Shown here: one piece after another, positions 3,613-36,524 of the stretch
Layout: each line of letters starts with the position of its first letter
Position numbering within the stretch: the stretch's first letter is position 1
NCBI GenBank assembly: GCA_016234925.1
Contig: JACRNI010000011.1
Span: 2,666-66,665, forward strand
Reading direction: 5' to 3'
DNA: 64,000 nt
Origin: Deltaproteobacteria bacterium
GTDB lineage: Bacteria; Desulfobacterota; GWC2-55-46; UBA9637; GWC2-42-11
The notes under the pieces: model-generated
Seen by the model: the letters and a program-made list of their open reading frames with translations, nothing else
Database searches by the model: none
What the model was told of the DNA's origin: nothing
Translations under genes and position numbers: made by a program

Positions 3613-4531
3613 TCAGATTGTTGTGTTCAACCCGTATCTCTTGCATGCAATATCCAAAACTGTATTTATAAGTTTATTATAATCCATGCCAGATGCCCTT
3701 GCTGCCTTTGGAAAACAGGAGTTATTCTTTGGGTCAGGGAGTATGCCCGGCAGGGGGTTGAGTTCCAGAATATAGGGGTTGCCGCTGGCATCCAGTCGGA
3801 CATCTATCCTGCACCAATCCTTTATATCCAGAACCTTAAATGTCTCTTTGCATACCGCCTCTATTTCATGCTTTAATGCCTTGTCTATTTTTGCCGGACA
3901 GACAAATATTTCCAGCGGATTATCAGGCGTGTCCCATATCCATTTTGCTTCATATGAATAGATAGGCTTGACACCTTCTGGCTTCATCTAAAACCCATTT
4001 GATTTTTTTATTCAGTTCTCCTTCATTATGAACAACAGAATCATTTCTTATGCCCTTGCTTGAGCCTTCATAAAGGGGTTTGACGATGAGAGGGAAATTG
4101 TAGCCCCCGACCTTTAGGTCGGGGGTGAGATGTGAGATGTGAGATGAAACTACAAAAAATCTTGCTGTGGGAATGCCGTAATATGACAGTATCTCTTTTG
4201 CCCTTGCCTTATCAAGGCATATGCCGAGTGTCAGAGGGTTAGAACCTGTGTATGGTATTTCAAGCATCTCTAATATCGCAGGAATATGCGATTCCCTGCT
4301 CCTGCCGTTAAGACCCTCCGCAATATTGAAAACAATATCAGGTTTTTCTATTTTAAGTTTTTGATACGCATCCTTGTCAGCCTCTATTAAAACAACTTCA
4401 TGTCTTTCTAAAATTGCTTTTTTTACAGCATCTATTGTCTCATCATCATCCCATTCAGCATAAAAATCCGGAGGGAGGTTCTCTGTTTCAATTTCTTTCT
4501 TTTTAATATTATATGTAATTGCGATTTTCAT
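3613..4531 (-). pseudogene. Second Ddl-like ATP-grasp ligase, split into two overlapping ORFs by a frameshift near 3950-3987. It also carries an in-frame hairpin-repeat insertion at 4103-4146.
   Basis: ORF 3950-4531 holds the N-terminal and central Ddl motifs (GSNPLTLGICLDKARAKEIL, PLIVKPLYEGSSKGI). ORF 3613-3987 holds the C-terminal ATP-grasp part (ILELNPLPGIL). Could be a real pseudogene or a sequencing frameshift. Confidence 0.5.
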
Positions 4532-5728: not shown

Positions 5729-5892
5729 TTGACGCTCAAAAATGTCTGGATGCTGGTAGCCGCAGGCTTTAGCCTGCGAAATAACGCAACCTAAAGGTTG
5801 CGGCTTTTTAGTATGTTGAGCGCAGAAGCCGAAGCGACAACGCCCGGGGCACCCATTGCAAAGCAATGGGTCGGGGCTTTTTGAGCGTCAAC
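5729..5892 (+). repeat. MITE-like family 1 copy with nested REP-like element (5755-5806) and GGGGCACCC hairpin (5843-5877)
   Basis: TIRs TTGACGCTCAAAAATG / CTTTTTGAGCGTCAAC; core GTATGTTGAGCGCAGAAGCCGAAGCGACAAC. Confidence 0.65.
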
Positions 5893-9183: not shown

Positions 9184-9411
9184 TTTTGAGCGTAATATTA
9201 TATTCAATTTGCAAGGTTTAAGTCAAGGATTAAGGCGATTGTAGTCTGCCGATTTATCGGCGTTTTTAAACTTGTCCCTGTATGCTTTAAGCAGGGATAC
9301 GCTCAATAAATTGAGCAACTACAAGTATGTTGAGCGCAGAAGCCGCTATGTTATGAGATTCCTCGCTTCGCTCGGAACAGGCTCCGCAGATGGGCATTTT
9401 CCAGCGTGAAC
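9184..9411 (+). repeat. MITE-like family 1 copy (degenerate/composite)
   Basis: Contains the family core GTATGTTGAGCGCAGAAGCCGC and right terminus GCAGATGGGCATTTTCCAGCGTGAAC. Confidence 0.5.
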
Positions 9412-9570: not shown

Positions 9571-10728
9571 TTACCCTTTCATTGCCTCTATCAAAACCCT
9601 TGCAACCTCTGGTCTTGAAAACTCAACAGGCGGGATCTGTCCTGCCTTTAACATTTCCCTTACCTTTGTGCCGGATAAGGCAATATGGTGGCTGGAATCA
9701 TGCGGGCAGCTCTTGTAAGATGCCATGCTCTCGCATTTTTTGCAGTAGAATGTATGGTCAAAAAAGAGCGGTGTTATGCCGATTTCCTGAGGGTCAAACT
9801 CGTCAAATATATAATGAGCGTCAAATGAGCCGTAATAATTGCCGACCCCTGCATGGTCCCTGCCAACAATAAAATGCGTGCAGCCGTAGTTTTTTCTTAT
9901 GAGCGCATGGAATATCGCCTCTTTCGGGCCTGCATATCTCATTGCCGCTGGAAGCACAACAAGGGCAGTCCTGTCCTTTGGATAATAGTTTTCAAGCAAA
10001 ACTTCGTAACACTTCATCCTCACATCAGCAGGTATGTCATCGCCCTTTGTCTCGCCTACAATCGGATGGATCATAAGCCCGTCAACTACCTCCAATGCGC
10101 ATTTCTGAATGTATTCATGCGCCCTGTGTATCGGATTTCTTGTCTGAAAACCAACGACCCTTTTCCAGCCTTTTTCTTTGAAAAGATGCCTTGTCTCTTT
10201 AGGGTCAAGCCTGTATTTTTTAAAGTCCTCCTGCTTTACCCTGTGTATGACTGACACCTTGCCTCCAAGAAGCATGTCCCCCATTTCAAAAACCTTTGCA
10301 ACACCCGGATGCGCCGTGTCCTTTGTGCCGTAGACCTGAACAGCCTCTTTTTCTTTGTCATGGCTATGCTTTTCTTCAATGTGAAGAACTGCTAAAATCT
10401 CGCCCTGTTTATTGACAAGGCTTACTTCCTCGCCTTGTTTTAGATTCTTTGCCTCGTCTTTTGTAACTGATAAAGTAACTGGTATTGTCCAAGGAAGACC
10501 ATTTGACAGTTTCATATTGTCCATGACGTTGTGATAATCATCCTTTTTCATAAACCCTTCGAGAGGACTGAATGCGCCTATTGCAATCATCTCAAGGTCA
10601 GACACCTCTCTGTCATTGAGATGCACCTTCTTTAGTTTTTTTGTCTTTTCTAAAAGTGCTTCCCTTTCCTTTCCTTCCAAAATCCTGTTTACAAGTTTGC
10701 CGCCATGCGGCTCGATTAAACCTAGCAT
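9571..10728 (-). CDS. sat: Sulfate adenylyltransferase (ATP sulfurylase)
   Basis: 385 aa; [11 protein letters not shown] and GRDHAGVG motifs. Confidence 0.9.
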
Positions 10729-10759
10729 TATTTATGCCTCCTTTTTTGAATACAGGTAG

Positions 10760-10813
10760 AGGTATAGGTAAAGTAAAAGATATTTTCCTCTACCTATACC
10801 TGTTTTACTTATG
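10760..10813. repeat. Word-hairpin intercistronic element (arms built of GGTAGAGGTATAGGTA words around an A/T loop)
   Basis: ACAGGTAGAGGTATAGGTA ... CCTCTACCTATACCTGT imperfect inverted repeat between sat and cysH. Confidence 0.5.
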
Positions 10814-11521
10814 TATCCCGCACTCCTTCTTTTCATCCTCTTTATTAAACCACCGCCACCTGCCTGAGCGGGGCGGTTCGCCTTTAACAAGAGGCGTTGA
10901 GCATATTATGCAGCCGATAGAGTCATAGCCCATATCAAAGAGTTTATTATACGGCAAATCATTTTCCTTTATATATTGCCAGATTTTTGCCATATCCCAG
11001 TCAGCAAGAGGATTTATTTTTAAGATTTTTCTGTTTTCTTCATCAATAATCTCTGCCTTTGGAACAGTTTTTCTATAATCTGACTGGTCTCTTCTAAGTC
11101 CTGTTATCCAAACATCAAGTGTTTTGAGCGCGCGTTTATTCGGTTCAACCTTTCTAACAAAACAGCAGTATTCCTGCTTTGCCTTGTCCATAAAAAAGAG
11201 ATACTCGCCGAATCTTTCAATCATATTCTTTAATGCGTTCTCATCAGGAAAATATCTTTCAACAGTCAAAACATATTTTTCTTCTGTATTATTGATTGCC
11301 TCATATGTCTCTGGATGAAGGCGAAGCGTGTCAATTGTAAAGCCCCTGAACTTTTTTGCACACCTGCTGGCAATATCAATAATCACAGTCCCTGTTAATT
11401 GAAAACTTGTGCCTATCGCGCACCTTTCACCAAACTCATCAAATGCCCATTTAATGAGTTCTTCTGCAGGCATTGCATTTAATTTTTTAAGTGTATCTTT
11501 TGTAATATCTTCAATCTTCAT
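10805..11521 (-). CDS. cysH: Assimilatory APS/PAPS reductase, Fe-S type (CysH family)
   Basis: 238 aa; PAPS-reductase fold plus cysteine pairs EYCCFVRKV and C-terminal KECGIH typical of 4Fe-4S APS reductases. Confidence 0.85.
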   Translation of the reverse strand: MKIEDITKDTLKKLNAMPAEELIKWAFDEFGERCAIGTSFQLTGTVIIDIASRCAKKFRGFTIDTLRLHPETYEAINNTEEKYVLTVERYFPDENALKNMIERFGEYLFFMDKAKQEYCCFVRKVEPNKRALKTLDVWITGLRRDQSDYRKTVPKAEIIDEENRKILKINPLADWDMAKIWQYIKENDLPYNKLFDMGYDSIGCIICSTPLVKGEPPRSGRWRWFNKEDEKKECGIHK

Positions 11522-11527
11522 AGTTAA

Positions 11528-12640
11528 TTATATTTCAATCCCCGATACTGCCGATACTGCTGACACTACCATGTTTCTGCCTCTGCTCTTGCCCAGATAC
11601 AAAGCCTTATCCGCATAATCAATAAGTTTGATTGCAGATTTGGCGTCATCGGGCCATGTGGCAACGCCGATAGTAACTGACACCATTCCACTCGGCTGAT
11701 TCTCTCCGCCCTTGTATTTGCTGCCCTCTACAGCCTTTCTGAGTTTTTCAGCAACCACTACTGCCCTATTATTGGGTGTCTCAGGAAGAAGACAGATAAA
11801 CTCCTCTCCGCCGTAGCGGGCGACAACATCCGCTGTCCTTAATTTATCAATCAATAGTTTTGCCGTCTGTTTAATCGCATCATCGCCCAACAAGTGGCCA
11901 TTCTTGTCATTGAAGTTTTTAAAGTGGTCAATATCTATCATAAGAACAGAAAAATGTTTTTTGTACCGCTTTGCCCTTGATAATTCCTTTTCAATGTAAT
12001 CAAAAAAGTATCTGCGGTTGTACATGCCTGTCAACTCGTCCCGCATGGATATATCTCTGGCATTTTTATAGATATATGCCTTCTCAACTGCTATTGCTAT
12101 CTGCTGCGCCACCTCTGTAAAAAATTTTACATCATTCTCATTAAATGAGTTTGGCTGCGCCTTGTGTATATTAAAAACACCGAGGATATTCCCATGCTTG
12201 CCAACCAATGGGACGCAAAGAAATGCGCCGATATTTGTCGCAGCGCCCTTATAAAACATGGACTTGGGTTCTTTGCTTACATCCTGCACCAGAACAGGCT
12301 TGCCTGTCTTTGCTGCCATGCCTGATATTCCCTCGCCTATTTTAAGGCATATGCACGGCAATACAACAGGGTCCGGATACCATGCCCTTACTACAAGTTC
12401 ATTGGATGTTTCATCCAGCAGCATAATGCAGAATTCATCAATACGAAGAGACTTGCCAATAGTGTCTATGGTTCCATTGAATATCTCTTCTATGCCGATG
12501 CTTAAATTAAGCACCTTGCTGATGTTGTAAAGCGAATAGATTTCTAAGACCCTGGCATCAAGTTCATTATTCAGCCTTTCCAACTCATCCCTTTCAGATT
12601 TGAGCCTTTCAAGTTCTTTAGCAATATCTTTCGCAGCCAT
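11528..12640 (-). CDS. GAF-domain diguanylate cyclase (GGDEF)
   Basis: 370 aa; N-terminal coiled coil, GAF-like region, and a GGDEF domain with RYGGEEF active-site motif. Confidence 0.85.
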   Translation of the reverse strand: MAAKDIAKELERLKSERDELERLNNELDARVLEIYSLYNISKVLNLSIGIEEIFNGTIDTIGKSLRIDEFCIMLLDETSNELVVRAWYPDPVVLPCICLKIGEGISGMAAKTGKPVLVQDVSKEPKSMFYKGAATNIGAFLCVPLVGKHGNILGVFNIHKAQPNSFNENDVKFFTEVAQQIAIAVEKAYIYKNARDISMRDELTGMYNRRYFFDYIEKELSRAKRYKKHFSVLMIDIDHFKNFNDKNGHLLGDDAIKQTAKLLIDKLRTADVVARYGGEEFICLLPETPNNRAVVVAEKLRKAVEGSKYKGGENQPSGMVSVTIGVATWPDDAKSAIKLIDYADKALYLGKSRGRNMVVSAVSAVSGIEI

Positions 12641-12648
12641 TATTACCT

Positions 12649-13260
12649 CTAAAACTTCACATATTCCTTTTTCTCAAGATAACTAATTATAGTCCTTGTT
12701 GACTCTTCAATTGACATCTTTGATGTATCAATTGTCAGTTCAGGGTTCAAAGGCTCTTCATACGGCGCTGATATGCCTGTGAATTCCTTGACCTCTCCAA
12801 GTCTTGCCTTTTTGTAAAGCCCTTTTGTATCCCTCTGTTCACAGACCTCTATCGGACACTTTACATACACCTCTATAAATTCGCCTTGTTTTTGAAGTTT
12901 TCTTGCATTATCTCTATCAGCCATGTATGGCGATATGAATGCTGTTATTGTGATGATATTTGCATCTGTAAATAGTTTTGCAACCTCGCCGATTCTGCGG
13001 ATATTTTCAGACCTATCCTCTGGCGAGAAGCCCAGATTCTTATTCAAGCCATGACGAATATTATCGCCGTCCAATATATATGCCTGATGTTTGTTTTCTA
13101 ACAAGGCATGTTCCAGTTCAACAGCAATGGTTGATTTTCCTGAGCCTGAAAGCCCTGTGAGCCATATTGTCACACCTTTCTGCTTCATCAACTTTATCCT
13201 GTCCTCTTTTGTAATCTTCCCATGATGCCATTTTATGTTTGTAGATTTTTGATTAGTCAT
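12649..13260 (-). CDS. cysC: Adenylylsulfate (APS) kinase
   Basis: 203 aa; P-loop [11 protein letters not shown] and [16 protein letters not shown] motif. Confidence 0.9.
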
Positions 13261-13302
13261 TCATCCCCCTTTTTAATTTCATTTCACTCACAAGTTTGCA
13301 CA

Positions 13303-13502
13303 GTTCACGCTCAAAAATTGCCCAGATGCAAGGCGGAGCAAGGTTTCAAGCGAGGCATACTTTTGTAGTATGTTGAGCGAAGAAGCCGCAGCGACAACAT
13401 GCACAGCGAGCGTTAGCGAGCGAATAGTAATGCATTATCCCTTACATGAGAGCATCCCGCAGGGATGCTCAACGCCGCAGATGGGCATTTTTCAGCGTGA
13501 AC
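13303..13502 (+). repeat. MITE-like family 1 copy
   Basis: Terminal inverted repeats GTTCACGCTCAAAAAT / ATTTTTCAGCGTGAAC; conserved core GTATGTTGAGCGAAGAAGCCGCAGCGACAAC. Confidence 0.7.
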
Positions 13503-13505
13503 ATC

Positions 13506-13994
13506 TTATTCCTCAAACACCTCAATCTTGCAAGATGCCCTTTCAACCAGTTCATCAACTATTGATTTTGAAAAATATTTTAAAAATACTGAACGTTTTC
13601 TTTTTATTGCCACTGCTGTATCAATCTTGTATCTTTCAATCACATCAAGAGACTTTTCAACAAAATCGCCCTGTGTTGTAACTGCGTCAAAATCAACATT
13701 CTCTTCCATTGCCCTGATTTGAACCTTGCCCATCTCCTCATAGCCGCGCTGCCGATACTCCTTCATTATAGCCTCTGTGAGTTGGGTTGAAGGCTTGTCG
13801 CCGATAAAACCTATGTCTGTAAATTTATCAAAAATCTCCTGAGTAAGTTCAGTCTCAATTATATAAAGGACAACGAGTTTTGCCTTTTCCTTTTTTGCAA
13901 GATTAACAGCATATTCAATTGCATCCTGCGATGTCCTTGATGTTGACAAAATTAAAAGTATATTTTTCATATCTTTATCCCCAAAATAGGCCAA
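13506..13994 (-). CDS. Universal stress protein-like (adenine nucleotide alpha-hydrolase fold)
   Basis: 162 aa; alternating hydrophobic beta-strand pattern NILLILSTS...KLVVLYII typical of UspA, but weak. Confidence 0.45.
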   Translation of the reverse strand: MAYFGDKDMKNILLILSTSRTSQDAIEYAVNLAKKEKAKLVVLYIIETELTQEIFDKFTDIGFIGDKPSTQLTEAIMKEYRQRGYEEMGKVQIRAMEENVDFDAVTTQGDFVEKSLDVIERYKIDTAVAIKRKRSVFLKYFSKSIVDELVERASCKIEVFEE

Positions 13995-15394
13995 TAAACT
14001 TTAGCCATAATATTGAAAACTATCCATGCGGTTATCATCATCACAATCCCTGCCTTTGCCATATCTCTTGCTGTAATATATCCAGATGAAACTGCTATTG
14101 CATTTGCAGGCGTTGACATTGGAAAACAAAATGCCAGACCTGCCGGAATTGCTATGGCATATGTAATAATCTGCGGGTCAAGATTAAATCTGCCTGCCAT
14201 GCCTATGCTGACAGGAAGCAAAATTGCTATAACAGCGGCATTGCTCATCCCCTCTGTTAAAAGGATTGTTAAAAGGGAAAATACCGCTATAACAAGAACA
14301 GGGCTGTTTGCCCAATCACCAATCACTGTATTTGCAAGCCATGCTGCTGCGCCTGATTTTTCCATTGCCGCGCCTAACGTTATAGCGCCGCCATACATAA
14401 GTATTATGCCCCAGTTGACATATTCCTCTATGTCTTTCCATCGGACAAGTTTTAATACGAATAATGCAACAACTGCGATGATTGCAATATTTGCAATACC
14501 TGCCATTCTGCTAAACAAAAGCCATGAAGATATGGTTATGAGCATCAAAATGCCGACAGCATATTCAGTATAACCCATCTTGCCAAGCCCTTTTATCTTT
14601 CTTGCAAACACATCTTTTGCAAGATGTATGTCCTGTATATCCTGCGGAAAAAATCTTGTAAGGCCGATGTAGCCTATAAAAAGCAGAATTACTACTGTTG
14701 GAAACACAACCATTGTGTATTCAAAAAAACCAATGGTTATACCTGTCGCCTCCTTGAGCATGCCAGCAGCAAGCGGAACCCTTGCGCCGCCCAAAAATGT
14801 CGCAACACCTCCGATTACACAGCCCCATGCAAGCGCGAGAAAAAGCGACTTTGCATAGTTTGACTTACCGGGTTTCAGATTCAAGCCCTTTGCAATCTCA
14901 AGCACTATCGGGAAAAGCATTGCGGCAACTGCATGTTCTGACATAAAAAACGACAAAACCGCTGCAAGTAAAAATATTGACGCAAGAAGTCCCTTCGGCG
15001 TATTCCCAAACCTATCCATTATTAGAACTGCAATCCGGCTCGCCAATCCTGAATGCATAACAGCAGCAGAAAGTATGAATGCGCCGAGTATAAAAAATAC
15101 TGCCTCATTTCCAAAGAGCGCATATGCCGCCTTTTTATCCATAACACCCAATAAAGGCACCATCACAATCGCCATAAGGCTTGTAATTGCAAGAGGCAGG
15201 GCATCTGTTACCCAGAGTATAAGACATACAACAAAAAGCGCCAATGCCCTCTGCCCTTGAATTGTAAGCCCGGAAGGTGTAGGGATATTTATGAGATACC
15301 AGAATATAAAACCAAGGGCTAAAAAAAATATGGGTCTTAATGACCTTACTAAAACTATTACCCAAATTGGTCTTCTGTCTATGATTACCTTCAT
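13967..15394 (-). CDS. Anion permease of the ArsB/NhaD/DASS superfamily, putative sulfate/anion transporter
   Basis: 475 aa, about 12-14 predicted TM helices, internal duplicated halves; sulfate-assimilation context. Confidence 0.6.
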   Translation of the reverse strand: MKVIIDRRPIWVIVLVRSLRPIFFLALGFIFWYLINIPTPSGLTIQGQRALALFVVCLILWVTDALPLAITSLMAIVMVPLLGVMDKKAAYALFGNEAVFFILGAFILSAAVMHSGLASRIAVLIMDRFGNTPKGLLASIFLLAAVLSFFMSEHAVAAMLFPIVLEIAKGLNLKPGKSNYAKSLFLALAWGCVIGGVATFLGGARVPLAAGMLKEATGITIGFFEYTMVVFPTVVILLFIGYIGLTRFFPQDIQDIHLAKDVFARKIKGLGKMGYTEYAVGILMLITISSWLLFSRMAGIANIAIIAVVALFVLKLVRWKDIEEYVNWGIILMYGGAITLGAAMEKSGAAAWLANTVIGDWANSPVLVIAVFSLLTILLTEGMSNAAVIAILLPVSIGMAGRFNLDPQIITYAIAIPAGLAFCFPMSTPANAIAVSSGYITARDMAKAGIVMMITAWIVFNIMAKVYWPILGIKI

Positions 15395-15397
15395 AAA

Positions 15398-16621
15398 TTA
15401 TCCCTCACCTACCTCCCTGACCCTCAATTTCCTCCGCAAAGTAGAAAGCCCCCAAACTGTCTTCAGTCCAAGTTTTGACTTGTAAAACTTATGCATCATT
15501 GTTTTGAATCTTGACATATCCCCTGTAAAAAACATCGCCTCAATGGGCGTTGTTATAACGCTGATGTCTCTCACCCAGTTCATGTTTATCCTGTTCTTTT
15601 TAACAGCATGATATAGATGCTTGTAAACAGGGGCAATCTCATCAAGAGAAGGTATTTTATATGAAAGAAGTTTCACGCTGCTCACGGGTCTATAAATCGG
15701 AAGTATAGGCACAACGCCAAGGTCTGTAAGAAAATCTATCCCCCTCATTGTTGATTCTGCCGGCTCAAGCCCGACAATAAGATTAGATGCGACAGTGCCG
15801 TTTGGAAAAACCTTTGCAGCATATTTAAGCGCATTTATATATCTGTTTCTGCCAATCAGTTCATCCCTCCCCGGGCATATCTCCTTAAAAAGTTTTTCAT
15901 CAAATATCTCCATATTGTAAAGCACAGAATCAGCGCCAACCGCATATGTTTCGTCTATAAACTTGTTCTCCTTTGGCGGAAGCGCCTCAACAGCAACAAT
16001 GGTGTTAAAATGTTTCTTGATTGCCTTTATATAAGGCTTTAAAAATTCTATGCCGCCGTCAGGCGTTTCTGAAAAACCAATTGAAAGATAGACAATCTCT
16101 GCCTTGCCTTCTTTGTATGCAGCCTCAACAGTTTCAAGAACCTCCTCAACACTATAAACTACACCGCCCTTTGAATTAAAATTCCCTGCACAGTATCTGC
16201 ACTCTATATTCATGTTGAAAAACTCGCACCTTGTGTCAGGCGTGATTGCAACATAACTGCCGTGCATATTGCCGATTTTTGAAAGCGGAATGCCTGTCGT
16301 TGTTTTCAGTTTATAAAAATCAGGTTTTGGTATGATTTTGACCTTAACAGATTCCCCCTCTCTTTTTATGAATGCCTTTCCATCTTTCTGGATAAGTTCA
16401 TAAGGAGAATTCTTTGCAAAATCCTCAAGAAAAGGCGCATTTACCCATGTCTTATAAGGCAATATTATGTCAAGCCCGCCTGTAATGCCTGTATAGCCTG
16501 TAGAAAGGTCTATGCCCAGACTCTTAACAGCGTTTTCATTAAGCCTTATACCGCAAAGCATAAGGTCTATCTTTAAATAACCGGGGTTGTGGAGATATGT
16601 CTTTGTTTTTTTCATAAACAA
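15398..16621 (-). CDS. Radical-SAM-like TIM-barrel protein with non-canonical Cys triad (C-x8-C-x2-C), function unknown
   Basis: 407 aa; CEFFNMNIECRYCAG in place of CxxxCxxC, followed by a radical-SAM-like downstream pattern (GKAEIVYLSIGFSETPDGG ... ASNLIVGLEPAES). Start abuts the ThiF stop (16621/16622). Confidence 0.55.
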   Translation of the reverse strand: MFMKKTKTYLHNPGYLKIDLMLCGIRLNENAVKSLGIDLSTGYTGITGGLDIILPYKTWVNAPFLEDFAKNSPYELIQKDGKAFIKREGESVKVKIIPKPDFYKLKTTTGIPLSKIGNMHGSYVAITPDTRCEFFNMNIECRYCAGNFNSKGGVVYSVEEVLETVEAAYKEGKAEIVYLSIGFSETPDGGIEFLKPYIKAIKKHFNTIVAVEALPPKENKFIDETYAVGADSVLYNMEIFDEKLFKEICPGRDELIGRNRYINALKYAAKVFPNGTVASNLIVGLEPAESTMRGIDFLTDLGVVPILPIYRPVSSVKLLSYKIPSLDEIAPVYKHLYHAVKKNRINMNWVRDISVITTPIEAMFFTGDMSRFKTMMHKFYKSKLGLKTVWGLSTLRRKLRVREVGEG

Positions 16622-17443
16622 TCATGTGCTGCATTTTGCAGCCTGTATCTCGCAAGCCTGCTCATACATAACCAAATCCTTTACTGTCGGATTATCTCCG
16701 CATAATGCACACTGGGTATCCCTTCTTACCTTTACTTTCCTGAATGTCATGGCAAGCGCATCAAATATAAGAAGATGTCCTGCGAGTTCATCACCTATTT
16801 TTAGAATCTGTTTTATTGCTTCTACTGCCTGAATAACGCCGATTACACCAGCGAGCGCTCCTAAAACACCTGCCTCCTGACAACTTGGCACAAGCCCTTT
16901 TGGAGGAGGCTCTGGATAAAGGCATCTGTAGCAGGGCTTTCCTTCATGCGGCTTGAATATTGTCACCTGTCCGTCAAACCTGAACATACTGCCTGACACA
17001 AGGGTCTTTTTTTCAAAAAAACATGCATCATTCATTAAATACCGCGTTGGAAAATTATCGCTGCCGTCAAGGATAACATCATAGTCTCTTATAATCTTTC
17101 TTATATTATCAATGCCAAGACGCTCGTTATAGACAATAACCTTGACATCAGGATTCAAGCCTTCAATAGATTTTTTAGCAGATTCTACCTTTGGCATCCC
17201 AATCTTTTCAGTAGAGTGAATTATCTGCCTTTGAAGGTTAGATAAGTCAACACAGTCAGCATCGGCAATGCCGATTGTGCCTATACCTGCAGCAGCAAGA
17301 TAATAAAGCGCCGGCGAACCAAGCCCGCCTGCGCCAAGCACAAACACCTTTGCGTCTAATAATTTAGCCTGACCCTTGCCGCCGACCTCAGGAAGAATTA
17401 TATGCCTTGAATATCGCTCTATTTGTTCTTCTGTAAAGTTCAT
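16622..17443 (-). CDS. ThiF/MoeB/MoeZ-type E1-like sulfur-carrier adenylyltransferase
   Basis: 273 aa; nucleotide-binding VLGAGGLGSPALYYLAAAGIGTIGIAD and zinc CxxC pairs CYRC ... CALC. Confidence 0.85.
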   Translation of the reverse strand: MNFTEEQIERYSRHIILPEVGGKGQAKLLDAKVFVLGAGGLGSPALYYLAAAGIGTIGIADADCVDLSNLQRQIIHSTEKIGMPKVESAKKSIEGLNPDVKVIVYNERLGIDNIRKIIRDYDVILDGSDNFPTRYLMNDACFFEKKTLVSGSMFRFDGQVTIFKPHEGKPCYRCLYPEPPPKGLVPSCQEAGVLGALAGVIGVIQAVEAIKQILKIGDELAGHLLIFDALAMTFRKVKVRRDTQCALCGDNPTVKDLVMYEQACEIQAAKCST

Positions 17444-17453
17444 AATTTAAATA

Positions 17454-17546
17454 CAGTTAAGGAGTTTAAGAGTTGTGGAGTTGAGGGATTTTTTTATTTT
17501 TAAGTTTTTAACTCCTAAACTCTTGAACTCTTCAACTCTTAAACTG
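17454..17546. repeat. Word-hairpin element (ACAGTTAAGGAGTT words), 3' flank of JAMM gene
   Basis: AATACAGTTAAGGAGTTTAAGAGTTGTGGAGTTGAGGG-ATTTTTTTATTTTT-AACTCCTAAACTCTTGAACTCTTCAACTCTTAAACTGTTTCT. Confidence 0.55.
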
Positions 17547-17946
17547 TTTCTATTTCCTCTTCCCTAAACGGCTCTCCTTCATTTTCAAATGTCCATGACT
17601 TCACTGAAACATCTTTTCCATTTTGCACAGCGACAATCACATATGAATAAAACGGCCATGCCCTTTGCCTGTCAAAATCAGATGGTCTGTCAGGATGGTC
17701 AGGATGGGAATGAAAAAAACCAATCACCTCAAAACCATCTTTTTTCGCCTCTTTTTCAACCCTTAATAAATCCTTTGGGTTTATCTCATACCTGTCATTC
17801 GCCCTTTCTTTATTTATATTCTCCAGAGGATAAATCTTTGTAATCTTTTTGTCCTTGCCAACCAATGCGCCGCAGCCCTCGCAAGGGTAGGATTTTTTTG
17901 CATGGCTGATGATTTCGTTGTAAATTTTCTGTGATAGATGTAACAT
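17539..17946 (-). CDS. JAMM/MPN+ metalloprotease (Mec+/CysO-cleaving-type)
   Basis: 135 aa; JAMM motif FHSHPDHPDRPSDFD (HxHx7SxxD) and upstream EGCG. Confidence 0.8.
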   Translation of the reverse strand: MLHLSQKIYNEIISHAKKSYPCEGCGALVGKDKKITKIYPLENINKERANDRYEINPKDLLRVEKEAKKDGFEVIGFFHSHPDHPDRPSDFDRQRAWPFYSYVIVAVQNGKDVSVKSWTFENEGEPFREEEIETV

Positions 17947-18060: not shown

Positions 18061-19059
18061 CTACTCCCACAACACAGTTGACAGATACCTGTCCCCGCCG
18101 TCAGGGAATATAACAACAATTACACCCTCTTCTAATTCCTTTGCAGCCTGAAGCGCACCCCACATTGCAGCGCCTGACGACTGCCCCACAAAAAGCCCTT
18201 CCTCCATTGCAAGCCTCTTTGCCATATCATATGATTCCTCTGTTGGCGCAGAAATCTTTTTATCAAGTTTATCTTCATGATATATGCCCGGGACAATGGA
18301 TGAAGGCATATGTTTTAAACCCTCAAGCCCATGCAGCGCTGTTGCTGGCTCAACTGCAATGATCTGTATGTCCGGATTGAACTCCTTTAATCTCCTGCCT
18401 GTTCCCATTATTGTCCCGCCTGTTCCTATGCCTGCGACAAGATGTGTTATCCTGCCGTCTGTCTGCTCTATAATCTCCACCCCTGTTGTGTCGTAATGCG
18501 CCTGCGGATTTGATGGATTATTATACTGGTCAAGTTTGCAGTATTTATCAGGACTGTCAACATACATCTTCCATGCAAGCCTTATTGCGCCGTCAGAGCC
18601 TTCCATTGGATTTGAATAAACCGTGTTTGCGCCGAAAGCCTTTAAAATCTTTTTTCTTTCATTGCTGACATTTTGCGGAACAACAAGTTCAACCTGATAA
18701 CCCTTAACAGCGCCAATCCATGCATATGCAATGCCTGTGTTGCCGGATGTTGAGTCAAGTATAATCTTGTCCTTTGTAAGCCTTCCTGCCTCTTCTGCAT
18801 CCTTTATCATCTTTAGCGCTGCTCTATCTTTAACAGAGCCTCCCGGATTATAAGATTCAATCTTCGCATAAATCTCGACACCTTTGCTTAAACCCTGTGC
18901 AATCCTATTTATTTTAACCAGAGGGGTATTGCCTACAAGTTCCAAAACAGAGGTCTTTGGCAATTTATAACCCCAGTTTATGATTTGTTTTAGATTATTC
19001 ATATTAAACCTTTCCGAGTAATGTAGTATATATCTTTGCTCCAAAAATGGTAGCCGCAA
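18061..19059 (-). CDS. cysM: Cysteine synthase B-like PLP enzyme (CysM-type, likely sulfur-carrier dependent)
   Basis: 332 aa; PLP lysine region GSVKDRAAL, glycine loop [20 protein letters not shown] as called probably starts too far upstream. Confidence 0.8.
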   Translation of the reverse strand: MRLPFLEQRYILHYSERFNMNNLKQIINWGYKLPKTSVLELVGNTPLVKINRIAQGLSKGVEIYAKIESYNPGGSVKDRAALKMIKDAEEAGRLTKDKIILDSTSGNTGIAYAWIGAVKGYQVELVVPQNVSNERKKILKAFGANTVYSNPMEGSDGAIRLAWKMYVDSPDKYCKLDQYNNPSNPQAHYDTTGVEIIEQTDGRITHLVAGIGTGGTIMGTGRRLKEFNPDIQIIAVEPATALHGLEGLKHMPSSIVPGIYHEDKLDKKISAPTEESYDMAKRLAMEEGLFVGQSSGAAMWGALQAAKELEEGVIVVIFPDGGDRYLSTVLWE

Positions 19060-19102
19060 CCTTTAGGTTGCGTTACCTACGCAGGCTAAAACCTGCGGCT
19101 AC
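19050..19102. repeat. REP-like two-hairpin element (GTAGCCG outer stem enclosing two hairpins)
   Basis: GTAGCCGCAACCTTTAGGTTGCGTTACCTACGCAGGCTAAAACCTGCGGCTAC; overlaps and supplies the last codons of cysK. Confidence 0.65.
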
Positions 19103-20011
19103 CGAATTTTCATGCACCCTTTCGCATGTATCAGGCAAAATAACCACAATAAGTTTCCCTTTGGAATCAGTTCTTTTTGCAATATCCAGCGCAGCAAAAA
19201 CTGCTGCGCCTGATGATATACCGCAGAGAATGCCCTCTTCCTTTATCATCCTTTTTGTCATATTTAATGCATCCTCATCTGAAACCTGCATCACCTCATC
19301 TATAATAGATATATTAAGTATTTGAGGCACAAATCCAGCGCCTATGCCGGAAATCTTATGCGCCCCTGCCTGACCGCCTGAAAGAACAGGAGATTTTTTT
19401 GGTTCAACTGCAATCGCCTTAAAACACGGCTTTCTCTTTTTAATAACCTCTCCAATACCTGTGATTGTGCCTCCTGTTCCAATACCTGCCACCAAAATAT
19501 CAACCTTTCCGTCAGTATCATTCCAGATTTCCTCTGCTGTAGTCCTTTTGTGAATATCAGGATTTGCAGGATTCTTAAACTGCTGAGGTATATATGAATT
19601 TGAAACCTTTTTTGAAATTTCCTCTGCCTTCAAAATAGCGCCCTTCATGCCTTCTGACGCAGGTGTCAAAACAACCTCTGCGCCAAACATCTTAAGAAGA
19701 GAGAGCCTTTCAATGTCAACAGTTTCAGGCATTGTAAGAATCAACTTATAACCTCTTGCAGCGCAAACAAATGCAAGCGCAATGCCTGTATTTCCTGATG
19801 TCGGCTCAATAATCGTTGTATTATTATTTATTAACCCTGCCCTCTCGCCTGCCTCAATCATACTTACAGCAATCCTGTCTTTGACGCTGTTTAAAGGATT
19901 AAATGACTCCAGTTTTGCGGCAACCTCCGCCTTTATACCCTTTGTCACCCTGTTCAATCTGACAAGCGGTGTATTGCCTATTGTCTCTGTGATGTCGTTA
20001 AATATCCGCAT
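19073..20011 (-). CDS. cysK: Cysteine synthase A (O-acetylserine sulfhydrylase)
   Basis: 312 aa; SVKDRIA PLP-lysine motif, [17 protein letters not shown]-terminal 13 residues are encoded by the REP-like element. Confidence 0.85.
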
Positions 20012-20227: not shown

Positions 20228-20464
20228 TTATTCTATTATATCAAGTTCAATAGGCTCTACCTTTACGCCTTTTTCAATAAAATAATTTATTGCCTTTTCT
20301 ATTTCCTGTGGTTCTCCGTCCAGTTCAAGCGCAACAAGACCAATGCTTTCGGAAACAGTCGCCTGTCTTATGTTTGTTACAACCTTATACAGTTTTCCAG
20401 CCTGATAAATAAGCGGCTCTTTTATCAATTCTTTTGGAAATGTAAGGTAAAATCTCTTTTTCAA
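20228..20464 (-). CDS. Small NIL-domain-like protein (MetO/MA1822-like ferredoxin-fold partner of sulfur-carrier pathways)
   Basis: 78 aa; pattern LTFP...EPLIYQ...LVALELDGEPQEIEKAINYFIEKGVKVEPI resembles NIL domains. Starts at a TTG overlapping the carrier stop (ATGTTTTGA). Confidence 0.4.
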   Translation of the reverse strand: MKKRFYLTFPKELIKEPLIYQAGKLYKVVTNIRQATVSESIGLVALELDGEPQEIEKAINYFIEKGVKVEPIELDIIE

Positions 20465-20742
20465 AACATCCCTCCGGCAATTGCAGGGATGATTGAAATC
20501 TCATCCCCATCCTTTAATTCTGTATCAATGCTGTTTTTAAACCTTATGTCCTCATCATTGACATAGATGTTCACAAAGCGTCTTATCTTGCCGTCATCTT
20601 CACAAATCCTTTCTTTAAGACCGGGGTATTGTTTTTCAATATCATTTATAAGGTCTTTAATATTTTTACCCCCTCCTTCTACTTCATCCTTGCCATTCGT
20701 AAGTTTCCTGAGCGGTGTTGGAATTCTGACTTTAATTGCCAT
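20461..20742 (-). CDS. ThiS/MoaD/CysO-like sulfur carrier with C-terminal GG followed by a 2-residue extension (…AIAGG-MF)
   Basis: 93 aa; beta-grasp-like pattern and terminal IIPAIAGGMF. The extension implies a need for proteolytic exposure of the GG, with the JAMM protease nearby. Confidence 0.65.
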   Translation of the reverse strand: MAIKVRIPTPLRKLTNGKDEVEGGGKNIKDLINDIEKQYPGLKERICEDDGKIRRFVNIYVNDEDIRFKNSIDTELKDGDEISIIPAIAGGMF

Positions 20743-20810: not shown

Positions 20811-21062
20811 TTACCGTTTTTCTATCTTCAACCTAAAATGATCGCCTTCTTTTTTGACCTCAACAATCTTATGTCCTTCTTCCTTGATGCTCTTTGGGAC
20901 ATTCTGAATCGGCTCGCCGTCATCTATAACAATCTCTAACACCTGACCTTTTTCCATCATCTCCAACTGCAATTTTGTTTTAACAAAATTTATAGGACAT
21001 AGAACATTTCTTAAATCAAGTGATTTGTCAGCCTTAATATCCATTTCATTTTGCTCCTGCAA
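20811..21062 (-). CDS. TusA/SirA-like sulfurtransferase
   Basis: 83 aa; LDLRNVLCPINF resembles the TusA CPxP motif region; overlaps sulfite reductase stop. Confidence 0.6.
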   Translation of the reverse strand: MQEQNEMDIKADKSLDLRNVLCPINFVKTKLQLEMMEKGQVLEIVIDDGEPIQNVPKSIKEEGHKIVEVKKEGDHFRLKIEKR

Positions 21063-22002
21063 CTATCTCGCCGCTCTTAAATGCGCCTGTCATAAACTTC
21101 ATATAACTTTCAACGCCAACCCTGTCAATGGTTGAACCAATCCTCTCGCCCCTTTTGCCATTCTCTTTATACCATTCAATGGTCTTTTGTATGACATCTG
21201 ACACCTTATCATCAGGAATAAATACCGCCGCCTCATTTGCCTCTCTCGGATGTCTGCCGTGCTTGCCGCCTACCCTTACAAAATGCCCGTATCTCTTTGC
21301 CTTCCATGACTCTGTCGGGCACGCCCTTATGCAGTCCCCGCAGTATATGCACTTTTCTGCATCATATATCGGTTTGCCTGTCTCCTGATGAGATACAATA
21401 GCGCCTTCTTTGCAAGCCCTTGAGCATATTGTGCATCCTGTGCATGTGTCCTCATCCCATATCGGCTCAACAACGCCCTGAAAACCCAAATCAGCCTCAC
21501 GGGTCCTTGCGCAGTCAATCGGACAGCCTGAAAATGACATCTTAAACTTATGATGCGTTGGAGTGCCGAAGAATTTTTCATCAACCATCTCTGCCATCTT
21601 CTGCGTATCTGTAAGACCATTTGGATTATATTCGCACCCGCCGCATGCAGTGGGCACCCTCACCCTTGGCCCGCATGACGCAACCTTGTGGTCAACCTTT
21701 GCCAAATCCGAGGTCAGATTATCAAAGTCCTTGTAATCAACATACAGAATCTCCAATGACTGCCTGAAACTTAAATGAACAACCCCTTTTTTGCTGTATT
21801 TATCAGCAATCTTCGCAAGTTCAATGAGTTTTTTTGTTGTGAGCCTTCCGCCGGGACAGCGCAGCCTTACTGTAAATAAATCCTTTTGCCTCTGCTTTAT
21901 AAAACCGCCGGACTTTAGCTCATTAAAGTCAACCTTAACCTCCTGTCCCTCTTTTTTAACAGGCACACGGGTTATCTTATCCTCTATAAAATGGTCAGCC
22001 AT
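21046..22002 (-). CDS. Small siroheme-[4Fe-4S] sulfite reductase with embedded 2x[4Fe-4S] ferredoxin domain (AsrC/assimilatory low-MW type)
   Basis: 318 aa; nitrite/sulfite reductase cysteines (ACGGCEYN, SFSGCPIDCA) plus ferredoxin motifs CTGCTICSRAC and CIYCGDCIRACP. Confidence 0.7.
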   Translation of the reverse strand: MADHFIEDKITRVPVKKEGQEVKVDFNELKSGGFIKQRQKDLFTVRLRCPGGRLTTKKLIELAKIADKYSKKGVVHLSFRQSLEILYVDYKDFDNLTSDLAKVDHKVASCGPRVRVPTACGGCEYNPNGLTDTQKMAEMVDEKFFGTPTHHKFKMSFSGCPIDCARTREADLGFQGVVEPIWDEDTCTGCTICSRACKEGAIVSHQETGKPIYDAEKCIYCGDCIRACPTESWKAKRYGHFVRVGGKHGRHPREANEAAVFIPDDKVSDVIQKTIEWYKENGKRGERIGSTIDRVGVESYMKFMTGAFKSGEIVAGAK

Positions 22003-22059: not shown

Positions 22060-23313
22060 TTATGCCTTCACAGCATAGACCTTGCCTTCTTTTGCCACAA
22101 GTTCATCAAATTCAGCAAGCCTTGCATTGATTGTTCTTGGCGCCCCAATCCTTCCAACAAGCGCCTCCTGTGTCTTTAACCCATTGCCTGTTATAGACAC
22201 AACTATTGACTCATCTTTTGGTATCCTTCCCTGCTCAATCAATTTCTTTGCAACGGCTAAAGTTACACCGCCTGCTGTTTCAGCGAATATACCTTCTGTC
22301 TCAGCCAGAAGTTTCATTGCATCAATAATCTCTTCATCAGACACATCCTCGCCCCATCCGTTGCTCTCCCTCATAACCTTTGCTGAATAAAACCCGTCCG
22401 CAGGGTTTCCTATTGCAAGGGACTTTGCAATGGTCTTTGGCTTTACAGGCTTTATAAGTTCTGTGCCTTCTTTAACCGCTGTGGTAATAGGCGAGCAGCC
22501 TGTTGCCTGCGCGCCGTATACCTTTGTATTTAAACTGTCAACAAGCCCGAGTTTATGAAACTCCTTGAATGACTTCCAGATTTTTGTGATAAGCGAACCC
22601 CCTGCCATAGGCACAACAATATGTTTTGGAAGTTTCCACCCTAACTGCTCTGCAATCTCGTAGCCAAACGCCTTTGACCCCTCTGCATAGTAAGGTCTTA
22701 TATTTATATTAACAAATGCCCATCCGTATTTGCCTGCAATCTCGCTGCACAAACGGTTGACCTCATCATAATTTCCCTTTATTGCAATGACATTTGTGCC
22801 GTAAACAAGCGTCCCCATTACCTTTGTCTGCTCAAGGTCATGCGGGATAAAAACATAACTTTCCATGCCGCAGGCAGCGGCATTTGCAGCAACTGAATTC
22901 GCAAGGTTTCCTGTTGACGCGCATGCAACGATCTTGAAATCAAACTCTATTGCCTTTGATATTGCGACAGCAACAACCCTGTCTTTGAAAGAAAGCGTCG
23001 GATAATTAACAGCATCATTTTTTAAATACAATTCTTGGACGCCCAAAACCTTTTCAAGATTCTTTGCCCTTACAAGCGGTGTAAACCCGACATCCAAGCC
23101 AACCTTCGGTTCGCCGTCGATTGGAAGGAGTTCCTTGTATCTCCACATATTCGGCGGTCTTTTTGATATGATGTCTCTTGTTAAAGATTTCTTGATTTTT
23201 TCATAATCATAATTGACCTCAAGGGGACCAAAGCAATACTCGCACACATGGAGAGCCTCTTTTGGATACTCCTTGCCGCATTCCCTGCATTTAAGACCTT
23301 TTACATAACTCAT
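22060..23313 (-). CDS. thrC: Threonine synthase family PLP enzyme. Annotated by homology as ThrC, but placed behind a SAM riboswitch in a sulfur operon, so it may be a MetM-like homocysteine synthase.
   Basis: 417 aa; N-terminal Zn-ribbon CRECG...CEYC, PLP lysine FKDR, long ThrC-type fold. Confidence 0.75.
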   Translation of the reverse strand: MSYVKGLKCRECGKEYPKEALHVCEYCFGPLEVNYDYEKIKKSLTRDIISKRPPNMWRYKELLPIDGEPKVGLDVGFTPLVRAKNLEKVLGVQELYLKNDAVNYPTLSFKDRVVAVAISKAIEFDFKIVACASTGNLANSVAANAAACGMESYVFIPHDLEQTKVMGTLVYGTNVIAIKGNYDEVNRLCSEIAGKYGWAFVNINIRPYYAEGSKAFGYEIAEQLGWKLPKHIVVPMAGGSLITKIWKSFKEFHKLGLVDSLNTKVYGAQATGCSPITTAVKEGTELIKPVKPKTIAKSLAIGNPADGFYSAKVMRESNGWGEDVSDEEIIDAMKLLAETEGIFAETAGGVTLAVAKKLIEQGRIPKDESIVVSITGNGLKTQEALVGRIGAPRTINARLAEFDELVAKEGKVYAVKA

Positions 23314-23343
23314 ATTTTCACCTCTGTAACGGCTTTGTAAAAA

Positions 23344-23395
23344 GTAGCCGCAACCTTTAGGTTGCGTTATTTCGCAGGCTAAAGCCTGCGGCTAC
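23344..23395. repeat. REP-like two-hairpin element in the 5' leader of the thrC-like gene
   Basis: GTAGCCGCAACCTTTAGGTTGCGTTATTTCGCAGGCTAAAGCCTGCGGCTAC. Confidence 0.65.
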
Positions 23396-23428
23396 CTACT
23401 TTGCCGTTTTTATAGACTTTTATTTGCA

Positions 23429-23470
23429 ATAAAAAAGCCCCTTCTTGAAATTAAGAAGAGGCTTTTATTT
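23429..23470 (-). terminator. Rho-independent terminator/attenuator (expression platform of the SAM riboswitch)
   Basis: Minus-strand AAAAGCCTCTTCTTAATTTCAAGAAGGGGCTTTTTT: GC-rich stem followed by a U-tract, between riboswitch and start codon. Confidence 0.65.
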
Positions 23471-23475
23471 CCTAA

Positions 23476-23596
23476 TCTTATCTTTCAAGGCTTAAACTAA
23501 AAAACCTTGATGGAGTTAGCACCTAGTCATCCTGCATTTGCAGGATCGGTTGCTGTGGTTTCACAGGGCCATTCCCTCCGCCACTCTGGATAAGCA
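23476..23596 (-). promoter_or_regulatory. SAM-I (S-box) riboswitch
   Basis: Minus-strand CUUAUCCAGAGUGGCGGAGGGAAUGGCCCUGUGAAACCACAGCAACC ... GGUGCUAACUCC ... GAAAGAUAAG matches the S-box consensus (CUUAUCaAGAG-GG-GGAGGGA-GGCCC-UGAA-CC-GCAACC, GGUGCcAAuuCC, P1 closing AGAUAAG). Confidence 0.85.
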
Positions 23597-23747
23597 ATAT
23601 CCATATTAAATTGTTGTAATATTTATAATATGAACAAATGTGCGTTGTCAAGGATAAATTTAATACTTATACACTGCCTTGACAATCAATCCCTTTTGTC
23701 ATACCCTTTTTAACATTAAAAGCTTGTTGAAAAACTCAACAATCTCT

Positions 23748-28254: not shown

Positions 28255-28449
28255 GTTCACGCTCAAAAATCGCCCAGATGCAAGGCTGTAGAAACATGGC
28301 TCGTAGAAACACGGCTTCAGCCGTGTTAACCTTAATTTTAACAGGTCTAAAGACCTGTTTCTACGCTGGTATGTTGAGCGTAGAAGCCGCAGCGACAACG
28401 CACGGGGCACCCAGCCGAAGGCTGGGTCGGGGTATTTTTCAGCGTGAAC
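28255..28449 (+). repeat. MITE-like family 1 copy with extra internal hairpins
   Basis: GTTCACGCTCAAAAATCGCCCAGATGCAAGG ... GGTATGTTGAGCGTAGAAGCCGCAGCGACAAC ... GGTATTTTTCAGCGTGAAC. Confidence 0.7.
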
Positions 28450-36400: not shown

Positions 36401-36524
36401 ATTCACGCTCAAAAATTGCACAGATGCAAGGCGGAGCAAGGCTTCAAGCGAGGCATACTTTGTAGTATGTTGAGCGTAGAAGCCGCAGCGACAACGCAGC
36501 AGATGGGTATTTTTCAGCGTGAAT
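36401..36524 (+). repeat. MITE-like family 1 copy (minimal form)
   Basis: ATTCACGCTCAAAAATTGCACAGATGCAAGGCGGAGCAAGGCTTCAAGCGAGGCATACTTTGTAGTATGTTGAGCGTAGAAGCCGCAGCGACAACGCAGCAGATGGGTATTTTTCAGCGTGAAT; ends at ribH stop codon. Confidence 0.7.

Follow-up and report, generated by a model that had tools for sequence, protein, structure and literature searches.

Why would an S-adenosylmethionine (SAM) riboswitch control a gene for threonine synthase? Methionine and SAM genes are what SAM riboswitches gate, and a riboswitch of this type precedes a threonine synthase (ThrC)-like gene in a 64,000-nucleotide stretch of the metagenome-assembled genome of an uncultivated Deltaproteobacteria bacterium (assembly GCA_016234925.1, contig JACRNI010000011.1, positions 2,666 to 66,665; this entire stretch is referred to below as the window), where the gene stands at the head of a string of sulfate assimilation and sulfur carrier genes. 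The locus is likely to be a SAM-repressed operon for protein-thiocarboxylate-dependent synthesis of homocysteine, and probably of cysteine as well. Its gene content supports the view that it merges a SAM-riboswitch-controlled MetM/MetO-type system with a Wolinella-type sulfate-reduction/carrier operon, with a NIL-domain protein and an E1 enzyme devoid of the rhodanese domain as its distinguishing components.

The MetM/MetO pathway of Streptomyces albulus is credited to Hasebe et al. (2024, Appl Environ Microbiol 90:e01247-24). In the summary given by the GapMind 2026 preprint, MetM is a ThrC homolog that uses O-phosphohomoserine and the thiocarboxylate of MetO, a sulfur carrier for which Mec serves in maturation and MoeZ in loading; the same summary notes that MetM is often misannotated as threonine synthase. 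PMC12172450 mentions a SAM riboswitch upstream of S. albulus metM and a cyanobacterial homolog that is 51.6% identical to MetM. For the comparisons described here, 80 loci from named genomes, scanned with an 8-sequence alignment, were supplemented with three close relatives of the window locus (L001, L003, and L004), the chromosome of Nonomuraea gerenzanensis, and 150 family representatives.

The riboswitch and its expression platform

The leader of the ThrC-like gene includes the following elements:

23622-23651, minus strand: candidate sigma70-type promoter, read from the sequence (TTGACA at 23651-23646, 18-nucleotide spacer, TATAAA at 23627-23622)
23475-23596, minus strand: SAM-I (S-box) riboswitch aptamer (RF00162)
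23431-23474, minus strand: expression platform, consisting of a linker and an intrinsic terminator (stem-loop at ~23433-23466, U-tract at 23431-23436)

A sequence-only reading of the window had placed a canonical S-box at 23476-23596 of the minus strand, followed by an intrinsic terminator, and both elements were recovered. In a covariance-model scan, RF00162 was the sole Rfam match in the 64-kb window, spanning model positions 1-108 of 108 with a score of 80.1 bits (E value of 3e-17), far above the gathering score of 44.4. Directly 3' of the aptamer, a predicted 14-bp hairpin (AAAAGCCUCUUCUU/AAGAAGGGGCUUUU, -19.2 kcal/mol) runs into a U6 tract; a simple terminator scan misses it because A-U stem pairs absorb part of the U-run. 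The candidate promoter, recognized by eye ~25 nucleotides upstream of the aptamer, is likewise missing from the consensus-scan list because that scan demands a -10 hexamer whose sixth base is T.

When the 5' strand of the P1 helix is unavailable, its 3' strand and the linker are predicted to pair with the 5' arm of the terminator (-16.1 kcal/mol), and folding predicts such a competing terminator/antiterminator pair in 7 of the 7 relatives examined. As modeled, the leader is a classical S-box OFF design: at high SAM, formation of P1 would leave the terminator free to stop transcription before the operon, whereas at low SAM the P1 3' strand would pair with the terminator 5' arm and allow readthrough. 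An OFF switch responding to high SAM would suit an enzyme of methionine synthesis, not one of threonine synthesis.

The MetM-like enzyme is distinct from canonical threonine synthases

The gene controlled by this leader is as follows:

22060-23313, minus strand: MetM-like, ThrC-family pyridoxal phosphate-dependent enzyme of 417 amino acids (PF00291, 248 bits; TIGR00260, 297 bits)

Its product carries an N-terminal Cys4 ribbon (C9, C12, C24, and C27) and the Schiff-base Lys110 in an SFKDR motif. Among solved structures, canonical ThrCs come closest (~40% identity), and none of these has a Cys4 ribbon. Sequence identity is 38-41% to canonical ThrC, 53-57% to the Nonomuraea homolog, and 62% to a cyanobacterial homolog. 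In a neighbor-joining tree, the window protein and its Nonomuraea and cyanobacterial homologs fall into a single 120-tip clade (xxRY) that contains no canonical ThrC, so the window protein belongs to a monophyletic group separate from bona fide threonine synthases.

The sequences also differ in the active site. At the positions of Thermus ThrC residues T88, S155, N157, R160, G187, W249, and D323, the window enzyme has L137, N204, R206, Y209, A237, G307, and T381, respectively, and the same L, N, R, Y, A, G, and T are found in 85 of the 85 clade members, all of them with the Cys4 ribbon and with eight inserted residues. The pattern T, S, N, and R, found in five canonical ThrC sequences at the first four of these sites (which we take to be the phosphate site of Thermus ThrC), is lacking in the window enzyme. 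Thermus T88, S155, and R160 presumably hold the substrate/product phosphate that directs the addition of water; their replacement would fit an altered outcome of the reaction.

In several genomes, a MetM-like gene and a canonical thrC coexist. Three Nitrospirota loci encode, just after the NIL-domain protein, a second ThrC with canonical residues that is 60-63% identical to the thrC products of hom-thrC-thrB operons. These loci, from metagenome-assembled genomes (MAGs) of Nitrospirota/Thermodesulfovibrio, have the gene order MetM-like, ThiS, NIL, canonical thrC:

L014:166-3268
L016:5986-8947
L030:148-3101

Nonomuraea, too, carries a canonical thrC elsewhere in its chromosome. The genomic context of the window enzyme is sulfur metabolism, not hom/thrB.

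Conserved association with a sulfur carrier and a riboswitch

In ~73 of 83 loci, the enzyme gene is followed by a ThiS-like gene, which is its direct neighbor in most of the 83 and lies three genes downstream in the window. Of the 80 genome-scan loci, 32 have a SAM-I riboswitch immediately upstream of the enzyme gene and in the same orientation, with no other match in ~1 Mb of sequence. The riboswitch-bearing loci represent at least six phyla, including Thermodesulfobacteriota, Verrucomicrobiota, Planctomycetota, Acidobacteriota, and Chloroflexota. Homologous aptamers precede the orthologous gene in all three close relatives, as well as in L087 and L088. No SAM-I riboswitch was found at the cyanobacterial and Nitrospirota loci among these 80, which for the cyanobacteria agrees with PMC12172450, and an Rfam search of 11 riboswitch-negative loci revealed no other SAM-riboswitch class except for a borderline SAM_alpha match in L051. 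In Nonomuraea, a riboswitch (68.7 bits) is followed by an enzyme with the Cys4 ribbon (53% identity to the window enzyme) and a 91-amino-acid carrier ending in Gly-Gly, the same three-part riboswitch-metM-metO layout as that reported, in outline, for S. albulus.

Three loci have unusual upstream regions:

L051:4737-4810: borderline SAM_alpha match (RF00521, 37.5 bits against a threshold of 36), ~1.2 kb upstream of the MetM-like gene in an Acidobacteriota MAG without SAM-I
L087:3775-3885 and 4010-4122: tandem SAM-I riboswitches before the MetM-like gene (62 and 69 bits with a purpose-built model)
L089:3872-13075: ThiS-NIL cluster without a riboswitch, with the gene of an Rrf2-family regulator ahead of the MetM-like gene and, downstream, genes for TusA and several DsrE-like proteins

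Homocysteine or threonine synthesis

Judged from sequence comparisons, the separate clade, the residue signature, the linkage to the carrier and the riboswitch, the Nonomuraea layout, and the coexistence with thrC all support the suggestion of the sequence-only reading that this gene codes for a homocysteine synthase of the MetM type and not for a true threonine synthase. It would be surprising, though conceivable, if the enzyme were a functional threonine synthase (perhaps bifunctional, with deaminase activity) that merely happened to be first in a sulfur operon, with the riboswitch balancing O-phosphohomoserine between threonine and methionine. This explanation draws on some of the observations that weigh against homocysteine synthesis. 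The enzyme passes the cut-offs of the thrC hidden Markov models (HMMs) (296.6 versus 167.1 bits for TIGR00260 and 315 versus 303 bits for NF006050); the 64-kb window has no separate thrC, nor were hom, thrB, or metE/H found there; and a Microcystis member of the family is reported to form threonine from O-phosphohomoserine and to deaminate threonine in vitro, with no rise in methionine upon its induction (PMC12172450). Other adverse points concern the operon and the reference system. Promoter and terminator scans across the operon gave background-level results that define no operon boundaries, and co-transcription of the full 14-kb gene string is presumptive; the hairpin and U-tract of a repeat in the leader (see below) could blunt riboswitch control and could serve as a second, SAM-independent terminator; and the likeness to S. 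albulus MetM/MetO is drawn from partial descriptions of that system, the Nonomuraea layout, and the shared clade, not from direct sequence comparison.

Passing the thrC cut-offs is, however, not discriminating, as TIGR00260 also passes the riboswitch-linked MetM-like protein of Nonomuraea. Because the NCBI thrC models pass proteins of both kinds, the label "threonine synthase" is applied across the board and is carried by all close homologs of the window enzyme. Threonine synthesis would also leave unexplained the invariant differences at four ThrC active-site positions, the presence of a true thrC alongside the MetM-like gene in Nitrospirota and Nonomuraea, and the obligatory ThiS-like neighbor, which has no role in making threonine; repression by SAM would be the opposite of what an enzyme of the threonine branch needs.

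Genes of the operon and the proposed pathway

Downstream of the MetM-like gene, the following genes were identified:

21046-22002, minus strand: small sulfite-reductase-like protein (NIR_SIR domains PF01077 and PF03460, two 4Fe-4S motifs)
20811-21062, minus strand: TusA/SirA-type sulfurtransferase (PF01206, 76.5 bits)
20461-20742, minus strand: CysO/ThiS/MoaD-type sulfur carrier, the candidate MetO counterpart (PF02597; ends in ...AIAGG-MF)
20228-20464, minus strand: stand-alone NIL-domain protein of 78 amino acids (PF09383, 52 bits)
19073-20011, minus strand: CysK, O-acetylserine sulfhydrylase A type (TIGR01139, 445 bits)
18061-19002, minus strand: CysM-type cysteine synthase (TIGR01138, 390 bits against a cut-off of 394; passes the cut-off of TIGR01136, the cysKM subfamily model)
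17539-17946, minus strand: JAB/Mec-type metallopeptidase (PF14464, 93 bits; HSHPDHPDRPSDFD motif read from the translation)
16622-17443, minus strand: MoeB/ThiF-type E1 adenylyltransferase without a rhodanese domain (PF00899, 274 bits)
15398-16621, minus strand: variant radical SAM protein (NF045502, 208 bits), between the E1 and the sulfate symporter
9571-15394, minus strand: sulfate uptake/activation block, comprising Na/sulfate symporter, Usp, adenosine 5'-phosphosulfate (APS) kinase, GAF-GGDEF protein, 3'-phosphoadenosine 5'-phosphosulfate (PAPS) reductase, and ATP sulfurylase (Pfam matches)

These Pfam and HMM matches bear out the proposed gene order, in which the ThrC-like gene heads a string of sulfide-generating and sulfur carrier genes that includes a NIL-domain protein. 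In L004, the riboswitch controls just five genes, those for the enzyme, the sulfite reductase, TusA, the carrier, and the NIL protein, which form the conserved core in L001, L003, and L004; the sulfate uptake/activation block is also present in L001 and L003. The small sulfite reductase scores below the cut-offs of the AsrC and DsrAB models. A beta-grasp carrier with a Gly-Gly motif, an E1, and a JAB peptidase are encoded together, as expected of a protein-thiocarboxylate system. The Gly-Gly of the window carrier is not C-terminal, being followed by an MF extension, and the stop codon of its gene overlaps the start codon of the NIL gene (TTGA). Of the MoeZ model, only positions 15-278 of 392 match the E1. 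The structure nearest to the window CysK is M. tuberculosis CysK1, and those nearest to the window CysM are the E. coli and Salmonella enzymes. With E. coli CysM as the nearest solved structure, assignment of the latter protein to the M. tuberculosis type was rejected, and carrier-dependent synthesis of cysteine is therefore conjectural here. The variant radical SAM gene occupies an equivalent position in L001, L003, L006, and L009; we know of no role assigned to its product in any described carrier pathway. The GAF-GGDEF protein (11528-12640), a diguanylate cyclase, is encoded between APS kinase and PAPS reductase, and likewise in L003.

The pathway encoded by these genes might operate as follows. 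Imported sulfate would be activated by ATP sulfurylase and APS kinase and reduced by PAPS reductase and the small sulfite reductase. The JAB peptidase would trim the carrier extension (MF in the window, the whole NIL domain in the fusion proteins described below), exposing the Gly-Gly. The rhodanese-less E1 would adenylate the carrier, and sulfide or a TusA persulfide would convert the adenylate to the thiocarboxylate. The MetM-like enzyme could then eliminate phosphate from O-phosphohomoserine and join the carrier thiocarboxylate to C-gamma, and homocysteine would be freed by the JAB peptidase once an S-to-N acyl shift has taken place.

Two other reactions could be envisaged for this set of genes. 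The enzyme might be an O-phosphohomoserine sulfhydrylase acting on free sulfide supplied by the neighboring sulfite reductase, with the carrier, E1, and JAB serving only CysM-dependent cysteine synthesis or some other pathway. Such an arrangement, which appears improbable, would account for the sulfite reductase gene being the immediate neighbor within the riboswitch-controlled core, for an E1 that has no rhodanese domain, and for the clustering of JAB, E1, and CysM genes further downstream. It would not explain why the carrier gene tracks the MetM-like gene in minimal two-gene units (L086, the cyanobacterial loci, and Nonomuraea) that have no CysM, sulfite reductase, JAB, or E1 genes nearby, and the window CysM is closest to the E. 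coli enzyme rather than to the carrier-dependent one of M. tuberculosis. MetM itself depends on the MetO thiocarboxylate, according to the GapMind 2026 preprint summary.

The second possibility is the formation of another sulfur amino acid, such as cysteate made from a phospho-amino acid and sulfite by analogy with the ThrC-like cysteate synthase of methanogens. That enzyme is also a ThrC homolog with an N-terminal Cys-rich region, and the operon produces sulfite, but the match of the window protein to TIGR03844 is weak (70.2 bits against a cut-off of 324.9), and cysteate synthase was rejected on this score. Given also that SAM riboswitches gate methionine and SAM genes and that a cysteate synthase would leave the tight link to the carrier unexplained, this assignment is most unlikely. 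Carrier-dependent homocysteine synthesis remains the preferred function.

Comparison with known systems

As far as the summary descriptions of S. albulus MetM/MetO allow, the window locus resembles it in having a ThrC-homologous enzyme, a ThiS/MoaD-type carrier, an upstream SAM riboswitch, a JAB/Mec peptidase and an E1, and, presumably, O-phosphohomoserine as the substrate. Identity of the window carrier is 51% to the protein that occupies the MetO position in Nonomuraea and 46% to M. tuberculosis CysO, which identifies the ThiS-like gene at 20461-20742, and not the NIL gene, as the MetO counterpart; NIL is an extra component that is absent from the actinomycete system. The window locus further differs from that of S. 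albulus in its E1, which, unlike MoeZ, has no rhodanese domain, in having the sulfite reductase and TusA within the riboswitch-controlled core, in the translational coupling of NIL to the carrier (to which it is fused in relatives), and in the presence of cysteine synthases and a whole sulfate assimilation set. The CysO-CysM-Mec system of M. tuberculosis shares with the window the CysO-like carrier, JAB, E1, and a CysM-type enzyme; in the window, however, a homocysteine-type enzyme with a SAM riboswitch heads the operon, and the CysM is closest to that of E. coli.

"Sulfur metabolism" operons with ThiS, JAB, and E1 genes were catalogued in 2006 (PMC1779556). The window resembles this class in combining a ThiS-like carrier, JAB, E1, SirA/TusA, sulfite and PAPS reductases, ATP sulfurylase, and APS kinase in one cluster, as well as in the carrier having a C-terminal extension that needs cleavage by JAB. 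The published account of these operons mentions neither NIL nor a ThrC-like gene. In a Wolinella operon of that class, described by Krishnamoorthy and Begley in 2011 (work cited in PMC5764234), homocysteine is reportedly formed by O-acetylhomoserine sulfhydrylase. That enzyme is of fold type I and uses an acetyl ester, whereas the window enzyme is a ThrC homolog of fold type II whose substrate is presumably a phospho ester.

A NIL domain is also tied to homocysteine formation in anaerobes by the pathway of methanogens and Desulfovibrio that relies on a DUF39 protein and a NIL-ferredoxin (MA1821/MA1822; PMC5764234). This pathway bypasses homoserine, and its NIL is fused to a ferredoxin domain; with no DUF39 (COG1900) among the scanned operon proteins and a 78-amino-acid NIL protein that has no ferredoxin domain, it was rejected for the window.

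The NIL partner of the carrier

A NIL gene follows the carrier gene in ~38 loci, and in seven loci the two form a single open reading frame (ORF) coding for a fusion protein of 171-190 amino acids with an internal Gly-Gly:

L006:7275-7790: ThiS-NIL fusion
L007:3020-3535: ThiS-NIL fusion
L008:7288-7803: ThiS-NIL fusion
L009:3326-3856: ThiS-NIL fusion
L018:7276-7791: ThiS-NIL fusion
L021:6334-6906: ThiS-NIL fusion
L024:6336-6851: ThiS-NIL fusion

A JAB peptidase is encoded in all seven loci with fused carriers, in 5 of 21 with a short carrier extension, and in 5 of 43 with a terminal Gly-Gly. At least 120 database clusters share the two-domain architecture of carrier and NIL under no annotation other than 'MoaD family protein', and in each of the neighborhoods seeded from four fusions, one being a minimal two-gene unit, a MetM-like gene bears the full signature. 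No report of a link between NIL and ThiS-like carriers was found in the literature searched.

The AlphaFold model of a ThiS-NIL fusion has two confident domains and a less confident junction; its predicted TM score of 0.54 makes it uninformative on domain packing. In this model, the first domain superposes on CysO with a TM score of 0.92. The NIL fold matches the C2 domain of MetN (Foldseek probability of 1.0, target TM score of ~0.6-0.7), and two invariant NIL residues, N31 and A35 in the window protein, align with MetN N295 and A299, both of which take part in binding L-methionine across the C2 dimer. In MetN, N295 hydrogen-bonds the bound methionine, and the N295A substitution abolishes detectable L-methionine binding (PMC6233128). 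Unlike in the MetNI importer, where NIL resides on the ABC ATPase, here it is either a separate protein or part of a fusion with a sulfur carrier. NIL is a conserved accessory of the carrier and, as the methionine-contacting Asn is retained, most plausibly binds methionine or homocysteine by analogy with MetN; a role in sensing these compounds or handing them off is the best guess. Tentatively, NIL could be a third, previously undescribed component of carrier-dependent homocysteine synthesis: a carrier made as a pro-protein, by fusion to NIL after its Gly-Gly or by translational coupling to it, would be matured by JAB in the manner of ubiquitin fusions, and NIL, in which the Asn and Ala of MetN C2 are retained, would respond to methionine or homocysteine by gating either the carrier or the MetM-like enzyme. 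Feedback at the protein level would then be layered under the SAM riboswitch.

Carrier pro-proteins have a structural precedent in PDB entry 1v8c, a 168-amino-acid 'MoaD related protein' of Thermus thermophilus with a MoaD-like domain, an internal Gly-Gly, and an extra C-terminal domain; the latter is not detectably NIL by sequence and was rejected as such.

Implications for genome annotation

Thousands of bacterial proteins labeled "threonine synthase," from both cultured and uncultured organisms, are probably homocysteine makers, and their mislabeling results in false gaps in methionine pathways and false predictions of auxotrophy. The two functions can be separated by the signature L/N/R/Y at positions 88/155/157/160 of Thermus ThrC combined with the Cys4 ribbon. 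As the pathway and its link to a riboswitch were published in 2024, the principal claim made here is confirmatory rather than surprising; what the window locus and its 80-plus relatives indicate is that SAM-riboswitch control of the MetM-like enzyme spans many phyla. The recurrent NIL partner of the sulfur carrier is directly testable, and the idea of a NIL-carrier pro-protein is the part most worth testing.

Repeats in the leader and elsewhere in the window

The leader of the MetM-like gene also contains a repetitive extragenic palindrome (REP):

23330-23408, minus strand: nested palindrome resembling REP elements and miniature inverted-repeat transposable elements (core of 52 nucleotides at 23345-23396), between the terminator and the ribosome-binding site

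The REP-like element that had been noticed between the terminator and the start codon proved real, its core being present in four copies in the window (5756+, 19080-, 23373-, and 27101+), against 0 expected by chance. The hairpin formed by this element (-33 kcal/mol) is followed by UUUUU. The distance from the aptamer to the start codon is 157 nucleotides, compared with 76 in the closest relative, L003, and the 81 extra nucleotides are due to insertion of the REP element, which was not found in L003 or in any of the 89 related loci fetched. A second copy (19045-19110), oriented like the one in the leader, lies between cysK and cysM and provides the last nine codons of cysK (VAAGFSLRR) and its stop codon in place of the usual CysK C-terminus.

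Outside the sulfur genes, a 666-amino-acid ORF (47886-49886) in a glycosyltransferase/radical SAM cluster had no Pfam match at E values of 1e-6 or lower. Another family of intergenic repeats (D3, D4, and D9) consists of a composite element of ~200 nucleotides in three or four copies, found at the following positions:

13304-13501: composite repeat, intergenic
28256-28448: composite repeat, intergenic
36402-36523: composite repeat, intergenic
5811-5855: composite repeat, intergenic
9379-9410: composite repeat, intergenic

Within the sulfur gene string, one copy of this element takes up the 245 nucleotides that separate the Usp gene from that of APS kinase.

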